Below are positions 7,264-19,269 of a stretch of DNA of 64,000 bases, piece by piece. The stretch is from NCBI RefSeq assembly GCF_056746865.1, contig NZ_CM163382.1; one strand, written 5' to 3'. Made by a program: the position numbers and the translations under genes. The first letter of the stretch is position 1. Every line of letters starts with the position of its first letter. A model generated the notes under the pieces. The model searched no databases. It saw only the letters and a list, made by a program, of their open reading frames with translations, and was not told the origin of the DNA.

Positions 7264-7746
7264 ATGACGAAGAAAAAAGCACATAAACCTGGTTCAGCGA
7301 CCATCGCGCTTAACAAGCGCGCCCGTCACGAATACTTTATCGAAGAAGAGTTCGAAGCGGGACTTGCCCTGCAAGGCTGGGAAGTTAAATCCCTGCGCGC
7401 AGGAAAAGCCAATATCAGCGACAGCTACGTCCTTCTGCGTGACGGAGAAGCGTTCCTGTTTGGCGCAAACATCACACCAATGGCAGTGGCCTCCACGCAT
7501 GTAGTGTGCGATCCTACCCGTACCCGCAAATTACTTCTCAACCAGCGCGAACTGGACTCATTGTACGGTCGCGTCAATCGAGAAGGCTATACCGTAGTGG
7601 CGCTCTCCCTGTACTGGAAAAATGCCTGGTGCAAAGTGAAAATCGGCGTCGCCAAAGGTAAGAAACAGCACGATAAACGTTCAGACATCAAAGAACGCGA
7701 ATGGCAGGTGGATAAAGCGCGTATCATGAAAAACGCCCACCGTTAA
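7264..7746 (+). CDS. smpB: SsrA-binding protein SmpB
   Basis: 160-aa translation [29 protein letters not shown]... is canonical SmpB. Confidence 0.95.
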
Positions 7747-7960
7747 ACCTGCACTCCAATTATTGACCAGTTCCTCACCGCGCCTCCCTCTCCGGCGGCG
7801 CGAATGAACATCTTATTGGCTATCACATCCGACACAAATGTTGCCATCCCATTGCTTAATCGAATAAAAATCAGGCTACATGGGTGCTAAATCTTTAACG
7901 ATAACGCCATTGAGGCTGGTCATGGCGCTCATAAATCTGGTATACTTACCATTACACATT

Positions 7961-8323
7961 GGGGCTGATTCTGGATTCGACGGGATTTGCGAAACCCAAG
8001 GTGCATGCCGAGGGGCGGTTGGCCTCGTAAAAAGCCGCAAAAAATAGTCGCAAACGACGAAAACTACGCTTTAGCAGCTTAATAACCTGCTTAGAGCCCT
8101 CTCTCCCTAGCCTCCGCTCTTAGGACGGGGATCAAGAGAGGTCAAACCCAAAAGAGATCGCGTGGAAGCCCTGCCTGGGGTTGAAGCGTTAAAACTTAAT
8201 CAGGCTAGTTTGTTAGTGGCGTGTCCGTCCGCAGCTGGCAAGCGAATGTAAAGACTGACTAAGCATGTAGTACCGAGGACGTAGGAATTTCGGACGCGGG
8301 TTCAACTCCCGCCAGCTCCACCA
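7961..8323 (+). ncRNA. ssrA: tmRNA (SsrA), 363 nt, ending in CCA
   Basis: Starts ggggctgattctggattcgacggg; contains the tag-reading-frame region gcaaacgacgaaaactacgctttagcagcttaa (ANDENYALAA-stop); ends ...ggttcaactcccgccagctccacca. Confidence 0.95.
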
Positions 8324-8353
8324 AACATTCATTCATGATGCATCATGAACCTT

Positions 8354-8391
8354 AAAAAAGCCTGTAACTTCAACGAGTTGCAGGCTTTTTT
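8354..8391 (+). terminator. ssrA intrinsic terminator
   Basis: aaaaaagcctgtaacttcaacgagttgcaggctttttt hairpin plus T-run directly after ssrA. Confidence 0.6.
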
Positions 8392-8489
8392 GTTGCATGT
8401 GTGGTCATGATCTCTGTATGAATCTTGACCTTTTGGCACCATGTTTAGCACCACGGTATCGTGGGGCTAAAAAAGCGTGGTGCTAAAAC

Positions 8490-9737
8490 ATGCCTAAGCA
8501 ACTGAAACCCTTAACAAATGTGGAGATCGCTGGCGCGAAGCCCCGTAGCACGGATTATGAGCTACGGGACGGTGAAGGCCTGTACTTGCTGGTTAAGACT
8601 TCAGGGAGGAAGGCCTGGCATTTCGAGTATTATCATCCCGTCACCAAAAAGCGCACCAAAACCAGCCTTGGCCCTTACCCGGTCGTTACACTGGCCATGG
8701 CTCGCGAAACTCGCACGAAATACAGACGACTGCTCTGGCAGGGCATCGATCCCCGTCAACACTTAGCAGGAATAGCCGAAGAAAAACGCCTCCAGAATGA
8801 ATGCACGCTGGAAAAAGTTGCGGAACAGTGGCTCAAAGAGAAGAAACGGACCAGCGACCTTAGCGAAGATCACGCCAAAGATGTCTGGCGCTCGCTGGAG
8901 ATGCACGTCTTCCCTTCTCTGGGCAGTACGCCCGTCACCGAGATCCGCCCGAAGATGCTCAAGGAACACCTCACCCCGCTGGAAGAACAGGGCATCCTCG
9001 AAACGCTGCGCCGGGTTATCTCACGGCTCAATGAAATCTTCCGCTTCGCCATCTCCGAAGAGCTTATCGAGTTTAACCCAGCAGACAACCTGGTCGCCCG
9101 CTTCAAGAAACCGAAAAAGCAGAACATGCCCGCCCTTCCCCCCAGCGAACTGGGCAGACTAATGTTGGCACTACAAAACGCCTCTATCCGCAAGGAAACA
9201 CGCTGCCTTATCGAATGGGAGCTACTGACCTGGGTTCGCCCCGGCGAAGCCGTTAGCGCCCGCTGGTGCGACATCGATATGAAAAAAGCGGAATGGCGTA
9301 TCCCTGACACCTTTATGAAGATGAACCGTTCACACACGGTGCCGCTCAGCAAACAGGCGCTGCGTGTTCTTCAGATCATGGAGCCCGTCAGCCGCCATCG
9401 TCCGTGGGTCTTCCCCAGCATCCGCAAACCGCTGGAGCACATGCACCAGCAGACCGCGAACGCCGCGCTTATCCGCATGGGGTTCGGCGGTGAGCTGGTC
9501 GCCCACGGCATGCGCAGCATCGCCAGAACGGCGGGCGCAGGTCATTTTCCCCGTGAAGTTCTGGAATCTGCACTGGCACACCAGAAAGAAGACGAGATCG
9601 AAGCGGCCTACAATCGCAGCGACTATCTGGAACAAAGGCGACCGCTCATGCAGTGGTGGGGAAACTACGTTGATGCCGCCAGACGGCAGGCATTGCTCGG
9701 TGAAGAAGAACCGCTGCGGATCGTGGAAGGAGAATAA
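8490..9737 (+). CDS. P4-type tyrosine integrase (IntA/SlpA-like)
   Basis: 415 aa; N-terminus MPKQLKPLTNVEIAGAKPRSTDYELRDGEGLYLLVKTSGRKAWHFEYYHP is the P4-integrase arm-binding type; C-terminal catalytic region with HxxR and Tyr; located directly next to ssrA. Confidence 0.9.
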   Translation: MPKQLKPLTNVEIAGAKPRSTDYELRDGEGLYLLVKTSGRKAWHFEYYHPVTKKRTKTSLGPYPVVTLAMARETRTKYRRLLWQGIDPRQHLAGIAEEKRLQNECTLEKVAEQWLKEKKRTSDLSEDHAKDVWRSLEMHVFPSLGSTPVTEIRPKMLKEHLTPLEEQGILETLRRVISRLNEIFRFAISEELIEFNPADNLVARFKKPKKQNMPALPPSELGRLMLALQNASIRKETRCLIEWELLTWVRPGEAVSARWCDIDMKKAEWRIPDTFMKMNRSHTVPLSKQALRVLQIMEPVSRHRPWVFPSIRKPLEHMHQQTANAALIRMGFGGELVAHGMRSIARTAGAGHFPREVLESALAHQKEDEIEAAYNRSDYLEQRRPLMQWWGNYVDAARRQALLGEEEPLRIVEGE

Positions 9738-9783
9738 TGTGACCAGTCCCATTCGTCAGAATCTGTTTGAACGGGAATGCGAT

Positions 9784-10383
9784 ATGCCGCTGCTGGAAGC
9801 GCGGCATCTCGCCCTTCTGCTTCTCGGCCTTGATGCTTCCCAACCTGCAAACGCCCTGCCGGAAGAACATCAGGAAAATTACCGTATCCTGCACGACGCC
9901 ATCAGTCGCACCATCAAAGCAACGGGCATGGTCAGCGCCCCGGCGAACAAACGCATGTTCTATGCCGATGAAATGTTCGCGCTGGCCTGGCGGCTTATTG
10001 ATGACGAACTCACGCCGCCAGAAATTAAGGCCCGGAGCCTGAAGGCAGTGATGAAACTGTCACGCAACAGCCGTGGCCGCAAGTGGCTGAAGACGCTCGG
10101 CGACGATGCGCTGCCGGATCTCACTGCTTCCACACAACCTTCCCTGCGTGGGATGCATAAGCGCGACAAAGCACGGGAGAATACTGCCAGGCTCTGCTGG
10201 TTACTGGTTCAGCTTCTGGTTGATGAGACTGACGGACGGTATGGCACGTCTGATAAACCGGCTTCGGATCGGATACTTCGGAAGCTGAAGGAGCTGGCGC
10301 AGGAGCGGGAATTACCGTCAGACGGGCTTGGGCGAGGGACGTTTTATGAGGTTTTGAAGATGGGAAGGGAGAAGGAAGTTTAG
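9784..10383 (+). CDS. hypothetical island protein coupled to integrase (start ambiguous: GTG 9739 directly after the int stop, or ATG 9784)
   Basis: ORF 9364..10383 overlaps int in another frame; plausible starts lie just past the int stop; no recognisable motifs. Confidence 0.45.
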   Translation: MPLLEARHLALLLLGLDASQPANALPEEHQENYRILHDAISRTIKATGMVSAPANKRMFYADEMFALAWRLIDDELTPPEIKARSLKAVMKLSRNSRGRKWLKTLGDDALPDLTASTQPSLRGMHKRDKARENTARLCWLLVQLLVDETDGRYGTSDKPASDRILRKLKELAQERELPSDGLGRGTFYEVLKMGREKEV

Positions 10384-10732
10384 GTAATAACACTGCAGAT
10401 CGCACGTGAACACAGTGCCACTTTCCCTATGGAATGTGAAATTAATCGGTAATACCCCTCGAAAGAATGTGAACAGACACTCTCTTGCTTAACTGTTGAA
10501 ACTCTTCGAATTAAAGACAAGGTTCGCCATTTAATTATCTGACAGTTCGCCCCAGCACAACGTTAAAGTGATTTTTGATCAATCACCTACTCTGCTCTGG
10601 CAGAGCCAGAGCCGTTTTACTGACTAAAGCACAAGCTTCCAGCGAATGCACCTTTCCACACACCATAAGTCTTGTGTGATACCAGCACTGACGGTGTATG
10701 TTACATATCCTTAAAAAGTTCTCCAGACCGAC

Positions 10733-11905
10733 TTAGAGAACCTTAGACTGTTCTGGGAACCAGTTATTAATTATATGTCTTCGACAGACTTTAGATATTT
10801 CAAATACCTGTCGTGACACTAATGCACCATCAGGATGGCGCTGGTCAGGTATGTCATTTTCTATGTCATAAAAATTATGCGTTATTTCTGGGGGAAAGAA
10901 AACGTTTTTGTCTAAAGGCACGCTTGCATAGGGATTATAATACACATGCAAACCATCAAAATGAGTTTCCTTGTAGTCCCTTGTTCGGCACATTACAATA
11001 TCCGCGCCAACAACCTCATTGTTGTAGAATTGTCGCTTCGTAGTAACATAATGGTCAGGACCAAGTTTTCTCGTATGAGAACCTTCGTTCTTCATACCTT
11101 CATTGGCAATAAAAACATTCACATCAAGAGCTCGGAATCTCGTATATCGGACATATCGATCGACCCGACTCTGAACGATAGCCTTACCAAAAGTACCTGT
11201 CGTTGAAAACACGATAGCACTGATTTCTTTGTATGAGTCATTTGTAAAAATACCTAAAGGTATTTCAGTGTCTTCATTTTTTTTAATCGATAAAACCCTT
11301 CTTTGCCTACCATTTACTAAATCTCTCATCGTAGGTTCTTCAATGCCAAACAATACCCGGTTAATGATTGTATTATTCTGGGTTAAAGATAGATCTGAAT
11401 CAAATGGGGCCAATGCTAACACAAAAGGCTTACCGATTACATGTTCCATTGTTGAGTATGGGAACTTCTTACCATTAATTCCGGTAAAGAGATCGCGCTT
11501 ATCTTTAATTTTCCCAAGAAGTTTTAGCGTAGATTGATGCTTAAACTTAGCTTCACTGAAAATTTCACTGACTGGCGGTTTATGGGGCTTGTCAGAGACC
11601 ATAGCCTCTACGTTAAATTTATAACCTAATGGCGTGCTAACACAAAAATCAGGACTGTCTTTTGTATAGTCAACCGAATACCCCAAACGAATAAACATCT
11701 CATTTAGATATAATTCCCACATAGAAGAATTAAAGGTAGTCTGAAATTCGTTAATAAATTTAGTTTGTTCACCACTGCGTTCCAGTAATCCGCGTCCCCA
11801 TGATTGGATCACCGCCCTAACAGGAGCAAGTTTAGGATCTGTGTAGATTGTTTTAAAATTGTGATTTAGTTTATTTCTAGCTATTTTTGTTGAGAAGAGA
11901 TCCAT
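10733..11905 (-). CDS. hypothetical protein, unassigned family (paralogue A); candidate defence or abortive-infection protein
   Basis: 390-aa AT-rich ORF. Shares conserved blocks with the 356-aa product of 33796..34866: EFQTTFNSSMWELYL vs EFQTSFEPCLWELYL, DSPDFCV vs DAPDFIV, FVLALAPFD vs FVIAIASFD, ISAIVFSTTGTFGKA vs VSAVIYSSLATWGKV, YNPYASVPL vs HNPFAKYPL. Confidence 0.7.
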   Translation of the reverse strand: MDLFSTKIARNKLNHNFKTIYTDPKLAPVRAVIQSWGRGLLERSGEQTKFINEFQTTFNSSMWELYLNEMFIRLGYSVDYTKDSPDFCVSTPLGYKFNVEAMVSDKPHKPPVSEIFSEAKFKHQSTLKLLGKIKDKRDLFTGINGKKFPYSTMEHVIGKPFVLALAPFDSDLSLTQNNTIINRVLFGIEEPTMRDLVNGRQRRVLSIKKNEDTEIPLGIFTNDSYKEISAIVFSTTGTFGKAIVQSRVDRYVRYTRFRALDVNVFIANEGMKNEGSHTRKLGPDHYVTTKRQFYNNEVVGADIVMCRTRDYKETHFDGLHVYYNPYASVPLDKNVFFPPEITHNFYDIENDIPDQRHPDGALVSRQVFEISKVCRRHIINNWFPEQSKVL

Positions 11906-12356
11906 TATTTACCTCTATAAACACTTTGTAAAACTAAACATGTGTATTTTACTGCGCTGATTGTCGAACATATGCTTCAAATTGTAATGCGGTATTCTAC
12001 ATCAGAAAAACCTCTTTTATATTTTCCTCATTAAATTTATTTACACCGAAAAATAGCCGCATGAATCATGTCTGAACAGATGAACTTCTCTAATATAGCC
12101 TAAATACCTACGACTGCGCTATAAAGAGGGAACCTCAAGCACTAATAGCACAAAGAAAATATGCGAACACAAATTTGACGCGAAACTATGACTTAGATAG
12201 GATGAATCTAGGTGGTGATGGTCACCTGGCGCCTGTCTCGCAAAGCAATAGCCCATCGTTCAGAAGTATACCAAATACTTGGCCGCCATCCATTATGACG
12301 CTGCCCGGTTAGCAGGCTATCGGTATCCAAAGCGTTACTTTATTGGAGGTACAGCC

Positions 12357-12896
12357 ATGTCTGACTATTCATACCTAAGCATTCTTAAAACGTGCGCTAA
12401 AAAGCTGGCTCGCATTCAGAAAATTAAGCTTTCCAAAGCACTCGAAATCGTTGCCCGTGACGCGAAATTCACCAGCTACCATGAGCTGTCCGAAGTCGCA
12501 AAACGTGCCCCGCTAGAACAACGGCTGGTTTTCGCTGCAATAGGCGAAGATACTCAAGAGGATGTGATTTATCGCGATGAGATTTTTTATGCCATAGACC
12601 GCGAGGTGGAAGATATGCTCTCCGGCGACATAGCGGAAACAAACGCCTATGGTTTTAGCATAGAGAATCTGGAGGCAACAAGCATAAATTACGACCCAAA
12701 GCGAGGCATTCTGGTCGTCCAAGTCATATTTGATTATCAGGGTGAACAAGATTCTGAACGCCCTTTCTCTGGTTCGTCCTTTGAAATTGTTGCGAAAATG
12801 GAGCTACTTCTTCGCGACAATGTATGGAGCCTCGTAGAAAATAGTCTGGAATTGACCTCTGTTAATTCAAATGTCGATAATGACTGGTACGATTAA
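12357..12896 (+). CDS. hypothetical protein (start uncertain; ORF opens at 12279)
   Basis: Long ORF in the AT-rich int-alpA interval; no motif recognised. Confidence 0.35.
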   Translation: MSDYSYLSILKTCAKKLARIQKIKLSKALEIVARDAKFTSYHELSEVAKRAPLEQRLVFAAIGEDTQEDVIYRDEIFYAIDREVEDMLSGDIAETNAYGFSIENLEATSINYDPKRGILVVQVIFDYQGEQDSERPFSGSSFEIVAKMELLLRDNVWSLVENSLELTSVNSNVDNDWYD

Positions 12897-13497
12897 GACA
12901 TATAACAGTAGGAGGCATTCCAAATTTTTGGCGGAGTGCCTTTTTAGTAACTATATCCAGATGAAATCATCGAGTTATCACATGAGCATCCATCTTACGT
13001 GTACTCAAAACACTTATGGGCTTCTAAATTCAGGAAGTCCCTACTCCGCTTGCTGGCGCTTCTTTGAGCCTCGTGGCGTCCATATACACCAATTAGGCCA
13101 GACCATGCTCAAACAACTTGTCGAGAAATGCTATGTGCAAAAACCACTGGACATGTTCTCGATGACAGCAGGCAAACTAACTGGGCTTGATCAATCTGGG
13201 CCTAAACTGGCTTCCATCATATGCAGAGGGATAGAGCAGGCCAAAGATGTACAACTCGGAGAGTTACTTTTTGCCTGCGGTATCTATGGTGTGGAAGAAG
13301 AAGAAGCCTGGTTACTAGCTAAAAGATTCAGTAATCTTGAGGCCTTGTATGGTGCCAGCATAGATTCTCTGATGAGTTATAACCTTCTTAATGAGGCAGT
13401 AGCTGTCAATACGTATAACTTCTTCCGTCATCCGCTCAATGTGTCGGCTCTTAACGAGTTACAAACAGAAGGTGGATTGAAGGTGCGCCATGGATAG
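12871..13497 (+). CDS. stand-alone protein homologous to the C-terminal helix-hairpin-helix region of NAD-dependent DNA ligase LigA (start uncertain)
   Basis: Translation ...VHIHQLGQTMLKQLVEKCYVQKPLDMFSMTAGKLTGLDQSGPKLASIICRGIEQAKDVQLGELLFACGIYGV...KRFSNLEALYGASIDSL...NFFRHPLNVSALNELQTEG parallels the LigA HhH region as I remember it (QLVEK.YV..P.DLF.LTAGKLTGL...GPK.A......FGTLEAL..AS.EEL...NFF...N..VI.EL); no adenylation KxDG motif upstream. Confidence 0.55.
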   Translation: MSIMTGTIKTYNSRRHSKFLAECLFSNYIQMKSSSYHMSIHLTCTQNTYGLLNSGSPYSACWRFFEPRGVHIHQLGQTMLKQLVEKCYVQKPLDMFSMTAGKLTGLDQSGPKLASIICRGIEQAKDVQLGELLFACGIYGVEEEEAWLLAKRFSNLEALYGASIDSLMSYNLLNEAVAVNTYNFFRHPLNVSALNELQTEGGLKVRHG

Positions 13498-13680
13498 AAT
13501 TAACACCAAGGCTGTGCCCGGCCTTTTATCTATGCAACGTAGCCGATGACAGTTAACGGTGAGACAGCAACACCTGTTGTAACATGTTTGTACTCGTGCA
13601 TTGCCATCCGTAGGCCTAAACATATCTGACTCCCACAGGATGGGGATAAAATACAACATTTGCATTTTCAATTTGTTATC

Positions 13681-13733
13681 GAAAAATCATTAGTCCTGAT
13701 GGGAAATAATATCTTCCCGGACTAATGATTTTC
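13681..13733. promoter_or_regulatory. long palindrome upstream of alpA (candidate operator, or terminator of the upstream gene)
   Basis: gaaaaatcattagtcc (13681..13696) and ggactaatgattttc (13719..13733) form a 14-bp perfect inverted repeat with inner gggaa/ttccc symmetry, about 100 bp upstream of the alpA start. Confidence 0.4.
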
Positions 13734-13831
13734 TATCCGGACTCCACTTTTTTATCCGGGCCTATACCTCCCCTCATCGTTCCGCGCTATAACCGCTCCG
13801 ACACTCTGTTCCCGTCCCGTGAGGTGCAATC

Positions 13832-14047
13832 ATGAAAACCAGTGCAGACAGTAACGATGCTTTTCCCGAAAGCGGCAACGTGCGTATGCGGCAGGTAGTC
13901 CAGTTTCTGGCGATGAGTGAATCGTCGGTTTACCGCCTGATTAAAAACACCGACTTTCCCCGCCCCGTCCACCTCTCTTCCCGACTGGTGGTCTTCGATG
14001 CTGCTGAAATCCGTCAGTGGCAACAGCGCCGCGCCGCCATCCGTTAA
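13832..14047 (+). CDS. alpA: AlpA-family phage transcriptional regulator (HTH_17)
   Basis: 71 aa; VRMRQVVQFLAMSESSVYRLIKNTDFPRPVHLSSRLVVFDAAEIRQWQQRR is typical AlpA; sits directly upstream of the primase gene. Confidence 0.8.
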   Translation: MKTSADSNDAFPESGNVRMRQVVQFLAMSESSVYRLIKNTDFPRPVHLSSRLVVFDAAEIRQWQQRRAAIR

Positions 14048-14082
14048 TCCACGCTCAGGGATGAGCCGACTGATACCCCGTC

Positions 14083-16152
14083 ATGAAACGCGCCCCTTTT
14101 CTCTGTAAGCAGTCTCCGGACCGCACGCTCGAAGTGGTGATCCTTGCCGGAAGCCTGGCATGGGAGACCTCACACGTGTGGCGAAAAGATCCCGACCGGG
14201 AAGATGATGTTCCCCCGATGGTACTCGGCCCGGATGAACTGGCCGATCTGAGCAATCTGACCATTATCAGGCCCGACACGCTCTACGTCCGGGTACTTCG
14301 CACCGGCGATATCAGTGAAGAAGAGCTGCTGAAAATTGCCGTAAAACTGGCGCACGCGGGCGTGCAGATGGCCCGGCTGATGACCCCTGACGGTGAGTTA
14401 CTGGAGAACTGGACCGGACAGCTTGAACGCCTGCGACAGGAAAGACCTTCTGACATCCTGCCGGATCACTTCCGCCTCGATGAAGAAGCACTGTGGTTTG
14501 ATAAGCTCACCGAACGGCGCGACGGTGAAAGCGATGTCCAGCCCCAGCGCATCTGTTCCCCTCTGCGCGTCACTGCCATCACCTGCGACAGCCATGACGG
14601 CAGCTATGGCCGCCTGCTGGAATGGCACACCACCACCGGGCAATTGCGGCGCTGGGCCATGCCGATGGCGATGCTCAGCGGCAACGGCGAGGAGCTGAGG
14701 CGCATTCTGCTGGAGAACGGCCTGACCTATATCTCCACCCGCCCTGCCCTGCGCAGTCTGCTGTGCGAATATATCTCGCGGTCACTCCCCGGACGCCGGG
14801 TCACCTGCGCGGAGAAAACCGGCTGGCACAACGGCGTGTACGTGCTGCCGGATGAGGTTATCGGTCCCGATGGCGACAACGTCATTCTCCAGGGCAGCCA
14901 CTACCTGACTGGCGGCTTTGCACAATCCGGTACGCTGGCAGAGTGGCAGGAGCAGGTCGCCGCGCTCTGTGCAGGCAATTCACGGCTGGTCTTTGCCGTC
15001 TGCTGTGCGCTGGCCGCCCCGCTGCTGCGCCTGACAGGAACGGGCGGCGGAGGCTTTCATCTGCGCGGTGAGTCCACTGACGGTAAGACCACGGTGATGA
15101 AAGTGGCCGCTTCCGTCTGTGGCGGGACGGATTACTGGCACTCCTGGCGGGCCACCGGGAATGCGCTGGAAGGAATTGCCAGCCGCCACAACGATGCCCT
15201 GCTGCCACTTGATGAACTGCGCGAAGTGGACCCGCGTGAGGCCGGGATGATTGCCTATATGCTGGCGAACGGACAGGGCAAGGGGCGCGCCCGCACCGAT
15301 GGCGAAGTGCGTAACCGCAGGCACTGGACGCTGCTGCTGTTCTCCACCGGGGAGCTGTCGCTGGCGGAACACACCGAATGCGCCGGGGAGCGCCTCTACG
15401 CCGGGATGGACGTGCGCATGGTACAAATCCCCAGCGACACCGGGCAGCATGGTTCGTTTGAGCAGTTGCACGGGTTTGCCAGCGGCCAGCAGTTCGCCGA
15501 TACTCTCTGCGACCGGGTGGCCCGCTTCCACGGCACCGCCTTTCGTGCCTGGCTGGCCTTCCTCACCAGCGACCTGGACGCCAGCACCACGCTGGCGAGA
15601 GAGTTACTTCGCCGCTACCAGACCGCCCTGATGCCGGACAACGCCGGAAACCAGGTGCAGCGCATCGTGGCCCGTTTTGCCCTGCTGGCGGTGGCCGGGG
15701 AGATAGCGACACTGAACGGTATCACGGGCTGGCAGGAAGGCTCGGCGTATGGGGCGGTGCAGATCTGCCTTCACGCCTGGCTGAACGAGCGCGGCCATAT
15801 TGCCAACCAGGAAGATGAAGGCGTGCTGGCGCAGATCAAGCGGTTCATTACCGCGCACCAGTACAGCCGCTTTGCCTCGTGGGATGGCCCGGACCGCCCG
15901 CTGAATATGGCAGGCTTTCGCCGGGTGGAAAAAGATCCGCTGACGGGCGAGGAACACACGCTGTTCTTCATCCTGCCTGAGGGCTGGCGGGAAATATGCC
16001 GGGGATTCAGTCCTGCCAGAGCGGCCAGATTATGCCAGGAAGCGGAATGCCTGCTGCCCGGCAGCGACGGGAAATACCAGTCGCAGGTTCGCCTGCCGGA
16101 GATCGGCAAAGCCAGAGTCTACCGCCTCACCTCCCGCATCCTCAGTATCTGA
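14083..16152 (+). CDS. phage/satellite replication protein (primase-like N-terminal region plus P-loop NTPase)
   Basis: 689 aa; Walker A-like GESTDGKTT in the middle; alpA-primase-iteron arrangement typical of P4-like and PICI elements. The many antisense ORFs across it reflect high GC. Confidence 0.7.
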   Translation: MKRAPFLCKQSPDRTLEVVILAGSLAWETSHVWRKDPDREDDVPPMVLGPDELADLSNLTIIRPDTLYVRVLRTGDISEEELLKIAVKLAHAGVQMARLMTPDGELLENWTGQLERLRQERPSDILPDHFRLDEEALWFDKLTERRDGESDVQPQRICSPLRVTAITCDSHDGSYGRLLEWHTTTGQLRRWAMPMAMLSGNGEELRRILLENGLTYISTRPALRSLLCEYISRSLPGRRVTCAEKTGWHNGVYVLPDEVIGPDGDNVILQGSHYLTGGFAQSGTLAEWQEQVAALCAGNSRLVFAVCCALAAPLLRLTGTGGGGFHLRGESTDGKTTVMKVAASVCGGTDYWHSWRATGNALEGIASRHNDALLPLDELREVDPREAGMIAYMLANGQGKGRARTDGEVRNRRHWTLLLFSTGELSLAEHTECAGERLYAGMDVRMVQIPSDTGQHGSFEQLHGFASGQQFADTLCDRVARFHGTAFRAWLAFLTSDLDASTTLARELLRRYQTALMPDNAGNQVQRIVARFALLAVAGEIATLNGITGWQEGSAYGAVQICLHAWLNERGHIANQEDEGVLAQIKRFITAHQYSRFASWDGPDRPLNMAGFRRVEKDPLTGEEHTLFFILPEGWREICRGFSPARAARLCQEAECLLPGSDGKYQSQVRLPEIGKARVYRLTSRILSI

Positions 16153-16169
16153 GTGCCATCTCGCGTGTC

Positions 16170-16385
16170 TTAAAAAAAGGTGGTACAGGGTGGGACAAGT
16201 GGTACACGCAGAGCTGGCGCGGGTTTCAGCGTCCCACTTTAGATAATTTGGTTTAAAAAAAGTGGTACAGAGTGGGACAGCCGTTGCTGAATCTGTCCCA
16301 CTTTTCTGACTGGTATTTTTCAGGTGGTACAGCGCAAAGCCACGGCTGGCGCGGTTGTACCACTTGTCCCACCTGTACCACCTTA
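16170..16385. repeat. iteron cluster, putative origin of replication of the island
   Basis: Copies of GTGGTACAG(R)GTGGGACA: aaaaaaaggtggtacagggtgggacaagtggtaca (16174..), aaaaaaagtggtacagagtgggacag (16254..), ggtggtacagcg (16322..), and an inverted copy gttgtaccacttgtcccacctgtaccacc (16355..16383); A-runs precede the direct copies. Confidence 0.7.
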
Positions 16386-16824
16386 AAAACAGAAGAAATG
16401 AAAATGGCGAAAAGGGACTGCAAAAGCAAAGGCTGAAAGGAAGAGAGAATAAGGGGAACGGACTTACTCTTAAATGGATAACCTATATTTTTATATTCGT
16501 ACCATTTACATGATGGAGTGCAAAGTTACCATTCAACATGATTTGGATTAGATAGCAAAATTCTCTATAGAATGTTTTCTAGATTTCAGAGGGATTTAAC
16601 GATAGCTTATCTCACAAATCACAAATCGGTCAAAAAATATACAGAAAACCAAGTTTTGCCCAGAAATCCTTTTAAAATTTTTGAGTTAAAAATCATTGTG
16701 TTGTATTAATTTCAGGACGCCACATGTCAAATATCGACACCCAATATAGTGTATAAAAACACAGGAGGACTCATTGTGATTTATATAATAAAATAACCTT
16801 ATACATCTTTCTGGAAACCAAGTA

Positions 16825-17811
16825 ATGGTTAAAATTCACATTTTAGATGCCGGACATGGTGATTGCTTGTTAGTAGACTGCGATGGTGTCAAATTGTTAA
16901 TTGACGCTGGCCCAAGTACATTTAGGTATAGAAAAAAAATTTCAGCCAAGTTAGCTGAACTTCTGAATGGCGAGTCTGTTGATATCGCTTTTGTAACTCA
17001 CAATGATGATGACCATATCGGTGGTTTCAAATACCTAATTGAAAATAAAATAAACATCAAGAGATTTGTATTCAATAGTTTATCTAACATTAAACATGTA
17101 ATAAAGAATTCAAGCAATAAAATATCGACCAAACAAGATATAAATCTTGATAGAATAGTGAAAGATGGAAGTTTTGTCTTTTCGACACTAACTTCAGATG
17201 ACTCTCCTATTTTAATCAGAAATATAAAAATAACACCTATTACTCCTTCAAAAAATATCCTTTTAAAATATTTAGAACAACAAGAGCGTAAAAACACAGA
17301 AATTAAAATATCATCTTCATCTGAAAAATATAGTATTAAAGAAGCACTGCAGTTGCTAAGCAATGGAAATGATATGTTTGTAAAGGATCCATCGGCAACT
17401 AATAAAACCAGTTTATCATTTATGATTGAGTATGGGAATTTTTGTGGATTATTCCTTGGTGATGCACACGAAGAAGACATCTACTCATATATGGCTAATC
17501 ATTGTGCCAATAGAAAAATATCATTTAACGTTGTTAAGTTAGCACATCATGGTAGTGAAAAAAACACGAGTTCACGGTTATTGAAGTTAATTGGTACAAC
17601 AGAATATATCATATGTGCGAATAAAACCAAGCATAATCATCCAAATAATTTAACTCTTGCAAGAATTTTAATACATGAACAAGAACCTAAAATTCATATG
17701 AGTAGCAGCAATCAGGAGATAATAAATTTACTCAATCAAATAAATTTATTAGGCTTCGGCATTACTGCAACCCATTCTGAAAATGGAGTTAATACTTTAA
17801 TCTATGAGTAG
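16825..17811 (+). CDS. metallo-beta-lactamase-fold hydrolase (ComEC-like MBL domain); first gene of candidate defence operon
   Basis: 328 aa; MBL motifs HILDAGHGD, VTHNDDDHIGG, GDAH, KLAHHGSEKN; strongly AT-rich; stop overlaps next start. Confidence 0.75.
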   Translation: MVKIHILDAGHGDCLLVDCDGVKLLIDAGPSTFRYRKKISAKLAELLNGESVDIAFVTHNDDDHIGGFKYLIENKINIKRFVFNSLSNIKHVIKNSSNKISTKQDINLDRIVKDGSFVFSTLTSDDSPILIRNIKITPITPSKNILLKYLEQQERKNTEIKISSSSEKYSIKEALQLLSNGNDMFVKDPSATNKTSLSFMIEYGNFCGLFLGDAHEEDIYSYMANHCANRKISFNVVKLAHHGSEKNTSSRLLKLIGTTEYIICANKTKHNHPNNLTLARILIHEQEPKIHMSSSNQEIINLLNQINLLGFGITATHSENGVNTLIYE

Positions 17812-19027
17812 AAAAAATGCTGTAAAAATAAAAGTCAATGATTCGGAATCAAGTGGCTATTTTTTCAAAGCAAGCTCCAAGGATGATTCTTTTGTAATTT
17901 CATCCAAGCACGGCCTTTGTTCTAGACAGTCAGATTGTGAAGAATTTCTTGATAATGTTCAGAATTGTTGCCGTTTATGCACTCAAGATTTAAATATTGA
18001 CAATATATCTTTTGAAATTGAAGGAAATAAGAAGCTAAAGCCAATAAGTTATTTCAGTCTTGAAAACAAAGATATTGTCATCACCAAAGTGGATGGGGTA
18101 TCTAATTATCCTTTAAGGATAGGAAAGATAGAAAAAGAAAAGTATTATACTTATGGTTACAAGAGTAAATGTGATAAGCCTGGCAGAATTTTATTAAATG
18201 AGCCAGATTTATTAGATGGGATTTGTTATTTCAATATATGTTCCGATGCAACACCTGAGTTGATTGAGAAAAGTGAAGAATATTATGGAATTTCAGGTTC
18301 ATTAGTTTTTGATTCTCCAGAAAAAGATGTTTTAACCGCACATGCAGTAATAACAACTAATGAAACCAATAATGACTTAGGTTCAGAAATATTACATGAT
18401 ATTGATTTCAAAGAAATTAATAACTTTTTCGGCTGTGAAGTATTCTTGGGTAAAAAACTCCAATTTCAACTAGATGATACTTTTAGTAAAAATTTTTCAA
18501 AGATTGGAGAAGTGCTTGTTAGCGACAAACTCCAAATTGAAATATTTATTTCATCTTATAAAGGTATACCATATTTTAATTTGACACCAATTGCTGATGC
18601 ATTAATTCAAAGTAAGTTTTATTATGTTTTTGGAAATGTTAGTAGAAGTGATCATATAAATATAATCGCTGCATCAAACATTATACTCAACAAATCTCAT
18701 TTAGAACCAGCTAATAAATTATTAACTAGCAAATTAACTGAATCGATATTATCAGCACCTCATATTTATTCCACTAGCATTGATGATAATAATTATCATC
18801 ATATTCATTTTAAACAAATGACTTCTGGTGATATTGAGCTCATAATATCATGTTATGGTGGAGGAGATGATCTTCCTAAAGATATAAATGGCACTTTAAC
18901 TGAGTTGTTACACAATATAAATACTTATAACTTAAATAAAAATTCAATAATTGAGAGGTCTTTTCTTAATCAAAAATTTACAGATGCACAATGCGAAATT
19001 TTATATGAGATTTTTTTGAGCGATTAA
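17804..19027 (+). CDS. protein with N-terminal trypsin-like (S1/DegP-type) serine protease domain and unknown C-terminal domain
   Basis: 407 aa; SSGYFFKASSKDDSFVISSKHGLC (GSGF...TNxHV-like His region), ENKDIVITKVDG (Asp region), YGISGSLVFD (GxSGxP-like Ser region) in trypsin-fold order; start ATGAGTAG overlaps the upstream stop. Confidence 0.6.
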   Translation: MSRKNAVKIKVNDSESSGYFFKASSKDDSFVISSKHGLCSRQSDCEEFLDNVQNCCRLCTQDLNIDNISFEIEGNKKLKPISYFSLENKDIVITKVDGVSNYPLRIGKIEKEKYYTYGYKSKCDKPGRILLNEPDLLDGICYFNICSDATPELIEKSEEYYGISGSLVFDSPEKDVLTAHAVITTNETNNDLGSEILHDIDFKEINNFFGCEVFLGKKLQFQLDDTFSKNFSKIGEVLVSDKLQIEIFISSYKGIPYFNLTPIADALIQSKFYYVFGNVSRSDHINIIAASNIILNKSHLEPANKLLTSKLTESILSAPHIYSTSIDDNNYHHIHFKQMTSGDIELIISCYGGGDDLPKDINGTLTELLHNINTYNLNKNSIIERSFLNQKFTDAQCEILYEIFLSD

Positions 19028-19053
19028 CTGATTCAATCGACAGAATTTCATTA

Positions 19054-19269
19054 TTGCATGTAATTCCTTTGGACCATTATTTAATAAAAGATAAATCAGA
19101 AATTAAAAATGAAATTATTACCATTGTTGAGAAAGCGTGTCAAGAATTAGACAGCAACATTTTAGATTATCTTGAGCATGGAATATCTATAAATCTATTA
19201 ATATTTCCAACTAATAATAAAGATGAATTATCAGGGTTAATGCAAAGGTTGATAAATAATTATGAATGA
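19054..19269 (+). CDS. small hypothetical protein (71 aa) coupled to the helicase gene
   Basis: ORF whose stop overlaps the helicase start (aattATGAatgatg); no motifs. Confidence 0.4.
   Translation: MHVIPLDHYLIKDKSEIKNEIITIVEKACQELDSNILDYLEHGISINLLIFPTNNKDELSGLMQRLINNYE

Follow-up and report, generated by a model that had tools for sequence, protein, structure and literature searches.

The window analysed here is a stretch of 64,000 nucleotides (nt) from contig NZ_CM163382.1 (RefSeq assembly GCF_056746865.1). In an Escherichia coli chromosomal island adjoining ssrA (tmRNA, 7961-8323), it contains a gene for a DUF927 protein of 689 amino acids (aa), followed at 16170-16385 by an array of short repeats, or iterons. 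A previous reading of the letters alone (the sequence-only reading) had described this array as a satellite-type origin placed directly 3' of a primase gene. The repeat unit was identified as the 8-mer GTGG(T/G)ACA, present in 10 exact copies and one degenerate copy within 16180-16381. The array is where the sequence-only reading had placed it and is more regular than had been described, and the repeated composites, the A7 runs, the inverted composite and the two half-sites listed there were all recovered. The composite GTGGTACAG(G/A)GTGGGACA is found at 16180-16197 and 16262-16279, preceded in both cases by an A7 run (16172-16178 and 16255-16261); the inverted composite TGTACCACTTGTCCCACCTGTACCAC lies at 16356-16381 and the half-sites GTCCCACTT at 16231 and 16295. 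The gene and the elements of the array are the following.

14083..16152, + strand: predicted initiator-helicase gene, 689 aa; the array begins 28 nt past its stop codon
16180..16206, + strand: left iteron triple GTGGTACA, GTGGGACA, GTGGTACA, with start spacing of 10 and 9 and an A7 run before it
16213..16225, no strand assigned: GC-rich motif GCTGGCGCGGGTT in the spacer separating the left triple from the first inverted copy, found again at 16345-16356
16230..16237, - strand: inverted iteron in degenerate form, reading GTGGGACG on this strand; the + copy at 16199 precedes it by 32 nt
16238..16261, no strand assigned: first internal AT-rich tract, up to 85% A+T, candidate unwinding region
16262..16279, + strand: central iteron pair GTGGTACA, GTGGGACA
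16294..16301, - strand: central inverted iteron, a single copy where relatives usually have two
16302..16321, no strand assigned: second internal AT-rich tract, about 70% A+T
16324..16331, + strand: single iteron; the right triple begins 32 nt later
16356..16381, - strand: right inverted iteron triple, the inverted repeat partner of the left triple
16385..16480, + strand: purine-rich tail, 77% A+G on the + strand, shared with Citrobacter islands

Measured from the stop codon (16152), the offsets of the copies are 28+, 38+, 47+, 79- (the degenerate copy), 110+, 120+, 142-, 172+, 204-, 213- and 222-, with six copies on the + strand and five on the - strand. The left and right triples constitute an inverted repeat of 29-30 nt, one indel apart, that brackets about 150 bp, and each of the + copies at 16199, 16262 and 16324 has a - copy 32 nt further on. 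The two AT-rich tracts divide the array into three modules. The single strand folds far better than shuffled sequences (z = -8.1) because the inverted copies produce such a fold automatically. At the position homologous to the degenerate copy, a Serratia locus (L006) carries an exact iteron. The GC-rich motif, in the form GCTGGCGCGG(G)TT, fills the 24-nt spacer in both the first and the third iteron module and is kept in the array of Serratia Ag1; it could be a second protein-binding site or a piece of an extended recognition element.

A chance origin of the array and a common repeat family were both rejected. GTGGKACA has 11 matches in the window, 10 of which lie inside 16180-16381, compared to a mean of 2.27 matches in shuffled windows, none of which (0/100) reached 11. 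Allowing one mismatch added a single degenerate copy, at 16230-16237, and revealed no second iteron cluster in the 64 kb. The 251-bp region containing the array was detected in 134 of 5426 complete E. coli genomes, as one copy each and always on the chromosome, and 132 of these copies are at least 99% identical; this is not the behaviour of the common chromosomal repeat family that the sequence-only reading had named as the outcome that would speak against it. Known RNAs were also rejected as an explanation of the array, as Rfam matches (E ≤ 0.1, 7500-23500) were limited to tmRNA families at ssrA (7953-8489).

The 689-aa protein encoded upstream of the array comprises an N-terminal Toprim-like domain (residues 1-120), a DUF927 ATPase core (130-413) with Walker A residues GKT at 334-336 and a C-terminal winged-helix-type domain located within residues 525-689; Pfam recognises DUF927 only (residues 130-413). 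Its open reading frame (ORF) is intact and is 95-97% identical in Salmonella, Klebsiella and Citrobacter, and its architecture is shared by the nearest full-length relatives, which are about 690 aa long and 57-97% identical. The family profile matches two solved helicases, SaPIbov1 Rep (8tch, E = 2e-21) and SCCmec Cch (5dgk, E = 2e-16). A structure model of the C-terminal 165 residues (pLDDT 89.7) ends in a helix-helix-hairpin unit; its best structural match is a replication initiator, not the oriT-binding protein TcpK, and by model comparison its fold is that of the corresponding domain of SaPIbov1 Rep and SCCmec Cch, at an identity of only about 10-18%. These models point to a Rep-type helicase with a C-terminal DNA-binding domain of the winged-helix type.

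The N-terminal part differs among relatives. Those next in similarity, of about 895 aa and 58% identical over residues 126-687, carry an N-terminal Prim_Zn_Ribbon and Toprim module that is replaced in the 689-aa protein by a different domain of about 120 aa. Only 43 cluster representatives of this domain were found among 1.84 billion proteins. It is always N-terminal and is fused to cores of the DUF927, D5_N/Pox_D5/DUF5906, AAA_25 or VapE-like types. Its family consensus, as read from the alignment, conserves neither the catalytic glutamate nor the DxD motif, and the domain is probably an inactive Toprim-like module. The placement given in the sequence-only reading, directly 3' of a replication gene, is correct; its description of this gene as a primase is not borne out, as the protein lacks a zinc ribbon and its N-terminal domain is at most a Toprim-like fold devoid of the catalytic acidic residues.

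We then analyzed 80 loci around homologues of this protein, taking one genome per species over a range of 36-96% protein identity. Nearly every homologue is followed by a multi-copy 8-mer in the 450 nt past its stop codon. In an unbiased scan for the densest 8-mer cluster across each whole 8-9-kb locus, 58 loci had one with 5 or more copies, and in 47 of these 58 it began between -100 and +300 nt relative to the stop codon; frameshifted ORF calls or an offset of about 1.1 kb account for the remaining ones, and the background elsewhere in the scanned loci reached a maximum of 3-4 copies. Loci L035, L036 and L060 have their iteron cluster about 1.1 kb downstream of the rep stop codon, which suggests that a gene was inserted between rep and the origin.

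The arrangement of the copies is also shared. Over the range of 36-96% protein identity, the plan '+++-++--+---', exact or slightly modified, is found again in Serratia, Proteus, Aeromonas, Burkholderia and Nitrosomonas, that is from Enterobacterales to Burkholderiales and Nitrosomonas. Spacing on the same strand is mostly 9-10 nt, a - copy follows a + copy by about 31-35 nt, and the first copy of the '+++' triples is located at a median of 28 nt past the stop codon. This plan is two-fold symmetric, its reverse complement mapping onto itself. The sequence of the iteron varies among homologues (GTGGAACA, GTGTAACA, TGGTAACA, TGGCTACA, GTGGGAAC, GGTGTGAC, GGGTTACA and CGTAACA). The array of Serratia Ag1 can be aligned base for base with that of E. 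coli, and 10 of its 11 copies differ from the E. coli iteron only at position 5 (T or G replaced by A, the GTGGAACA type), indicating that the copies changed in concert. The iteron motif changes together with the protein, a correlation only, which suggests that each iteron is specific to its cognate initiator. When E. coli, Citrobacter youngae and C. sedlakii are compared, 1 of 88 iteron columns is variable compared to 15 of 128 other columns (Fisher p = 0.003), and the sole variable iteron column lies in the degenerate copy; the iterons are conserved under selection. In primase-bearing relatives (L008, L048, L058 and others), a conserved motif TTCTGGCGGGC is found about 55 nt past the arrays and is followed by a small ORF starting MRVMRIYCPEC, which has no counterpart in the island of the window and which we take, from its CPEC motif and unchecked against family libraries, to be zinc-finger-like.

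The limits of the conserved segment were determined by comparing islands. Between the E. coli island and those of the two Citrobacter species, homology extends only from 13664/13717 to 16476/16481, and both flanks differ. The shared block consists of alpA, rep, the array and about 95 further bases. A variant island in E. coli E04 breaks at the same right point; it carries just a 90-aa ORF and a helix-turn-helix (HTH) gene between the array and the srlA-like gene, and its left cargo also differs, with a 980-aa DEAD/DEAH helicase in the slot between int and alpA. Homology to other islands ended at 16477-16481 in three independent comparisons. As this block is shared between islands with differing flanks, the array belongs to a conserved alpA-rep-ori core, which moves as one unit between islands whose flanking cargo differs. 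The comparisons place the defence cassette in a variable slot that starts at about 16480. The array itself had been proposed as the boundary with a defence operon; this has to be corrected, the conserved module running about 95 bp beyond the last copy, to about 16477-16481. The purine-rich tail that occupies these bases was rejected as a feature of the family, being present in close relatives only and absent from more distant ones.

In the remainder of the island, the following features were identified.

8490-9737, + strand: integrase gene
10733-11905, minus strand: PD-T7-5 homologue (E = 2.4e-137), a candidate defence protein, in the variable slot between int and alpA
12871-13497: ORF with a helix-hairpin-helix (HhH) region, resembling residues 427-565 of the NAD-dependent DNA ligase LigA, without the ligase catalytic domains
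13832-14047, + strand: alpA-family regulator gene, left end of the conserved alpA-rep-ori module
16825-21786: low-GC cassette encoding a metallo-beta-lactamase (MBL)-fold protein, an unknown protein and a HamB-like helicase in two parts
16825-17811: MBL-fold LmuA/Avs1a-like gene, located upstream of the split HamB-like ORFs, as is the gene for the unknown 407-aa protein
19262-20464 and 20503-21786: HamB-like DEAD-box helicase in two ORFs, in different frames
21941-22420, minus strand: HTH gene, followed by an srlA-like gene

The genes int, alpA and rep are all on the + strand, and the distance from ssrA to the srlA-like gene is about 14.4 kb, within the 10-20 kb expected of a phage-inducible chromosomal island (PICI). 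GC content is about 63% in the DUF927 gene and only about 30% in the cassette, and the junction between the array and the MBL gene is common to 129 of the matching E. coli genomes. The ORF at 12871-13497 is annotated in RefSeq as an HhH domain protein. The two HamB-like ORFs cover positions 4-400 and 413-842 of the 845 positions of the PADLOC HamB profile, and the same two separate ORFs are annotated in the RefSeq record of strain 118UI; the split helicase could represent either a pseudogene or a protein made in two parts. The island yielded no gene for a relaxase, for transfer, for a terminase or for an invertase; capsid, terminase and cos-like elements were likewise not detected, and no match to a lambda-type cosN rose above chance. 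Matches of the module to plasmid records were also inspected: a 6,989-bp Salmonella plasmid turned out to be a linear contig of a fragmented assembly and gives no evidence of an autonomous plasmid, and the remaining matches are chromosome-sized records or records hundreds of kb long.

Combined, these data support the array as oriV, the origin of vegetative replication of a small, satellite-like genomic island inserted beside ssrA, a reading to which we give a probability of about 0.8 on comparative evidence and on homology to characterised systems; the satellite-type origin put forward in the sequence-only reading is strengthened by the same two lines of evidence. Two features that characterise origins of the PICI type and of the Staphylococcus aureus pathogenicity island (SaPI) type were found: a position directly downstream of the initiator gene, here 28 nt past the stop codon, and opposed short iterons around AT-rich DNA, here 11 copies and two tracts. 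Those of a DnaA-dependent iteron plasmid origin were not, as no DnaA box (≤ 1 mismatch), integration host factor (IHF) consensus or GATC was present within 16102-16500; the only GATC in the stretch scanned, at 16101, lies upstream of the array. We infer initiator binding, melting, double loading and origin activity at the array. In the proposed mechanism, the DUF927 protein would serve as both initiator and helicase, its C-terminal winged-helix-type domain recognising the GTGG(T/G)ACA 8-mers. The sites have two-fold symmetry, with a direct triple at one outer end, an inverted triple at the other and, between these, pairs and singles in both orientations. Lying around the two AT-rich tracts, they would position two oppositely oriented helicase assemblies. 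These assemblies would melt the AT-rich DNA and self-load without DnaA. Priming would be supplied by the host primase or by a helper, because the protein has neither a zinc ribbon nor an intact Toprim active site.

A number of observations weigh against this reading. The array of the window corresponds to the shared plan minus one inner inverted copy, with one further copy degenerate. The initiator has no zinc ribbon and no recognisable active primase, and the replicon may be unable to sustain itself alone. A search of 22400-22820 and of the whole window for a direct repeat of the ssrA 3' end (8301-8323), as a candidate attR, found none, and the right end of the island is therefore undefined; the island may be immobilised and no longer excising, or may extend past the srlA-like genes. 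The module matched no phage record and was found on no true plasmid. The mutual information between iteron class and alignment columns gave a diffuse signal confounded by phylogeny, in which only K/R664 separates the classes cleanly; it was not used as evidence. Several of these points would suit a relic, that is a true origin by descent that no longer fires in a decaying and immobilised island: the missing attR, the degenerate and missing copies and the initiator without a primase module, to which can be added the frameshift that splits the adjacent HamB-like helicase gene and the near identity (at least 99%) of 132 of the 134 E. coli copies, which fits vertical inheritance. However, iteron columns are better conserved than spacers in E. 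coli and the two Citrobacter (1/88 compared to 15/128), the 689-aa ORF is intact and highly conserved across genera, and the occurrence of the alpA-rep-ori block with different cargo across species implies recent mobility. We consider a relic unlikely.

Functions other than replication appear less probable still. The array lies between two co-oriented transcription units and could consist of operator sites bound by the DUF927 protein, AlpA or an HTH protein of the island, for rep autoregulation or termination or for control of the downstream cargo, with no role in replication. Plasmid iterons often double as operators, and the strength of the single-strand fold could be counted on the same side, but this fold follows automatically from the inverted copies. 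A promoter or a terminator was rejected, no such site being found in the array. The downstream genes differ between islands whereas the array stays with rep. The involvement of AlpA is weakened, as no window-type AlpA was detectable upstream of rep in other loci with the same array plan, although short divergent ones could be missed. Moreover, the equivalent region is required for replication in the relatives that have been tested (PMC6092414), and we regard operator sites without a replication role as very improbable. The outer inverted repeats of 29-30 nt bracketing about 150 bp, together with the resemblance of the C-terminal domain model to TcpK, would be compatible with a different cis-acting role, in which the array would be an origin of transfer (oriT), a site for packaging or the two ends of a segment that inverts or recombines. 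We give this least credence of all: the island gave no sign of genes for a relaxase, for transfer, for a terminase or for an invertase, no lambda-type cos site exceeded chance, the conserved internal copies and fixed spacing would be needless in an invertible segment, and the model resembles a replication initiator more closely than TcpK.

Under the oriV reading, the array marks the site at which an island with defence cargo, present in uropathogenic and other E. coli, would initiate replication of its own DNA. The alpA-rep-ori block would be the stable core of such islands and the defence cargo would be swapped on both sides. The system is experimentally tractable, as rep together with 16150-16480 should make a minimal replicon. 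Comparison of the family also provides natural initiator-iteron pairs whose specificities differ by single bases, a resource for work on origin recognition by self-loading helicases. A more speculative joint reading, which we hold to be rather doubtful, has two parts. A single fixed scaffold with two-fold symmetry ('+++ - ++ -- + ---', about 12 sites, inverted pairs 32 nt apart) may be common to all proteobacterial DUF927 initiators and would dictate head-to-head loading of two helicase rings, the GGT..ACA-type sites being convergent with those of P4 despite unrelated binding domains. The primase-less variant may carry an undescribed N-terminal module, a dead Toprim-like fold common to at least four unrelated mobile-element helicase families, which could be an adaptor that borrows the host or helper primase.

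We finally compared the array and its initiator with known replication systems. Satellite phage P4 resembles the window in several respects: its crr lies directly 3' of the alpha gene, its ori combines a direct triple with an inverted copy, AT-rich DNA and another pair, and its annotated 'ori type 1 repeat' GGTGAACA is shaped like GGTG(G/T)AACA and GTGGTACA of the present family. In contrast, P4 depends on both ori and crr, separate sites with type 1 repeats in common, whereas the window has one array; alpha shows no detectable sequence similarity to the window protein (BLASTP E > 0.3), and the structural matches to the C-terminal model do not include 1ka8, the origin-binding domain of P4. Neither an alpha-type primase-helicase, with a D5-like core and a 1ka8-type domain, nor an ori and crr pair was found in the window, and a P4-type origin-binding domain in the window protein is not supported. 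Given the lack of similarity to alpha and of a match to 1ka8, the likeness to P4 is functional and does not reflect family membership. In PIME elements, oriV also directly follows repA, but these elements need transfer genes, which are absent from the island of the window.

The origins of Gram-negative PICIs are located 3' of pri-rep (Fillol-Salom et al. 2018, PMC6092414), and a pri-ori plasmid of EcCICFT073 needs both parts (PMC6092414). The supplements of PMC6092414 contain no iteron sequences for comparison. We located the EcCICFT073 origin in CFT073 (L083:10005-10240), where copies of GGTAGACA/TGTCTACC are present in mixed orientation. EcCICFT073-type PICIs share with the window the gene order int ... 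alpA ... rep ... ori, an origin directly 3' of the replication gene and short iterons in both orientations around AT-rich DNA. Similarity extends to the N-terminal part of about 120 aa of EcCICFT073 Pri-Rep, which is homologous to that of the window protein (38% identity, E = 7e-16). The two differ in their helicase core, of the D5_N/Pox_D5 type in Pri-Rep and DUF927 in the window protein, and in their iterons, GGTAGACA in EcCICFT073 and GTGG(T/G)ACA in the window. The island of the window further departs from Gram-negative PICIs in its position at ssrA, in carrying defence genes, with no capsid, packaging or cos functions detected, and in that the direct-repeat att sites which such elements have at both ends were not found in the window.

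In SaPIs, Rep proteins bind iterons through a C-terminal winged-helix domain, and the origin directly follows rep, its AT-rich centre flanked by iterons in opposed orientation (PMC9371898). The ATPase core of SaPIbov1 Rep and SCCmec Cch is homologous to that of the window protein and their C-terminal domain has the same fold. SaPI origins likewise resemble the array in their location downstream of the gene, their 6-12 short repeats, the opposed orientations of these and the AT-rich centre. The family of the window differs in its Gram-negative hosts, in repeats of 8-9 nt compared to 5-6 nt in SaPIs, and in a fixed 12-site plan with two AT-rich tracts compared to one centre. In conclusion, the array is most likely a further example of the known PICI/SaPI type of origin and not a new mechanism, and it leaves the current understanding of satellite origins unchanged, this type of origin being already known. 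What it would very probably add, to judge from homology, is an origin of this type attached to a primase-less DUF927 initiator in a defence-carrying ssrA island.
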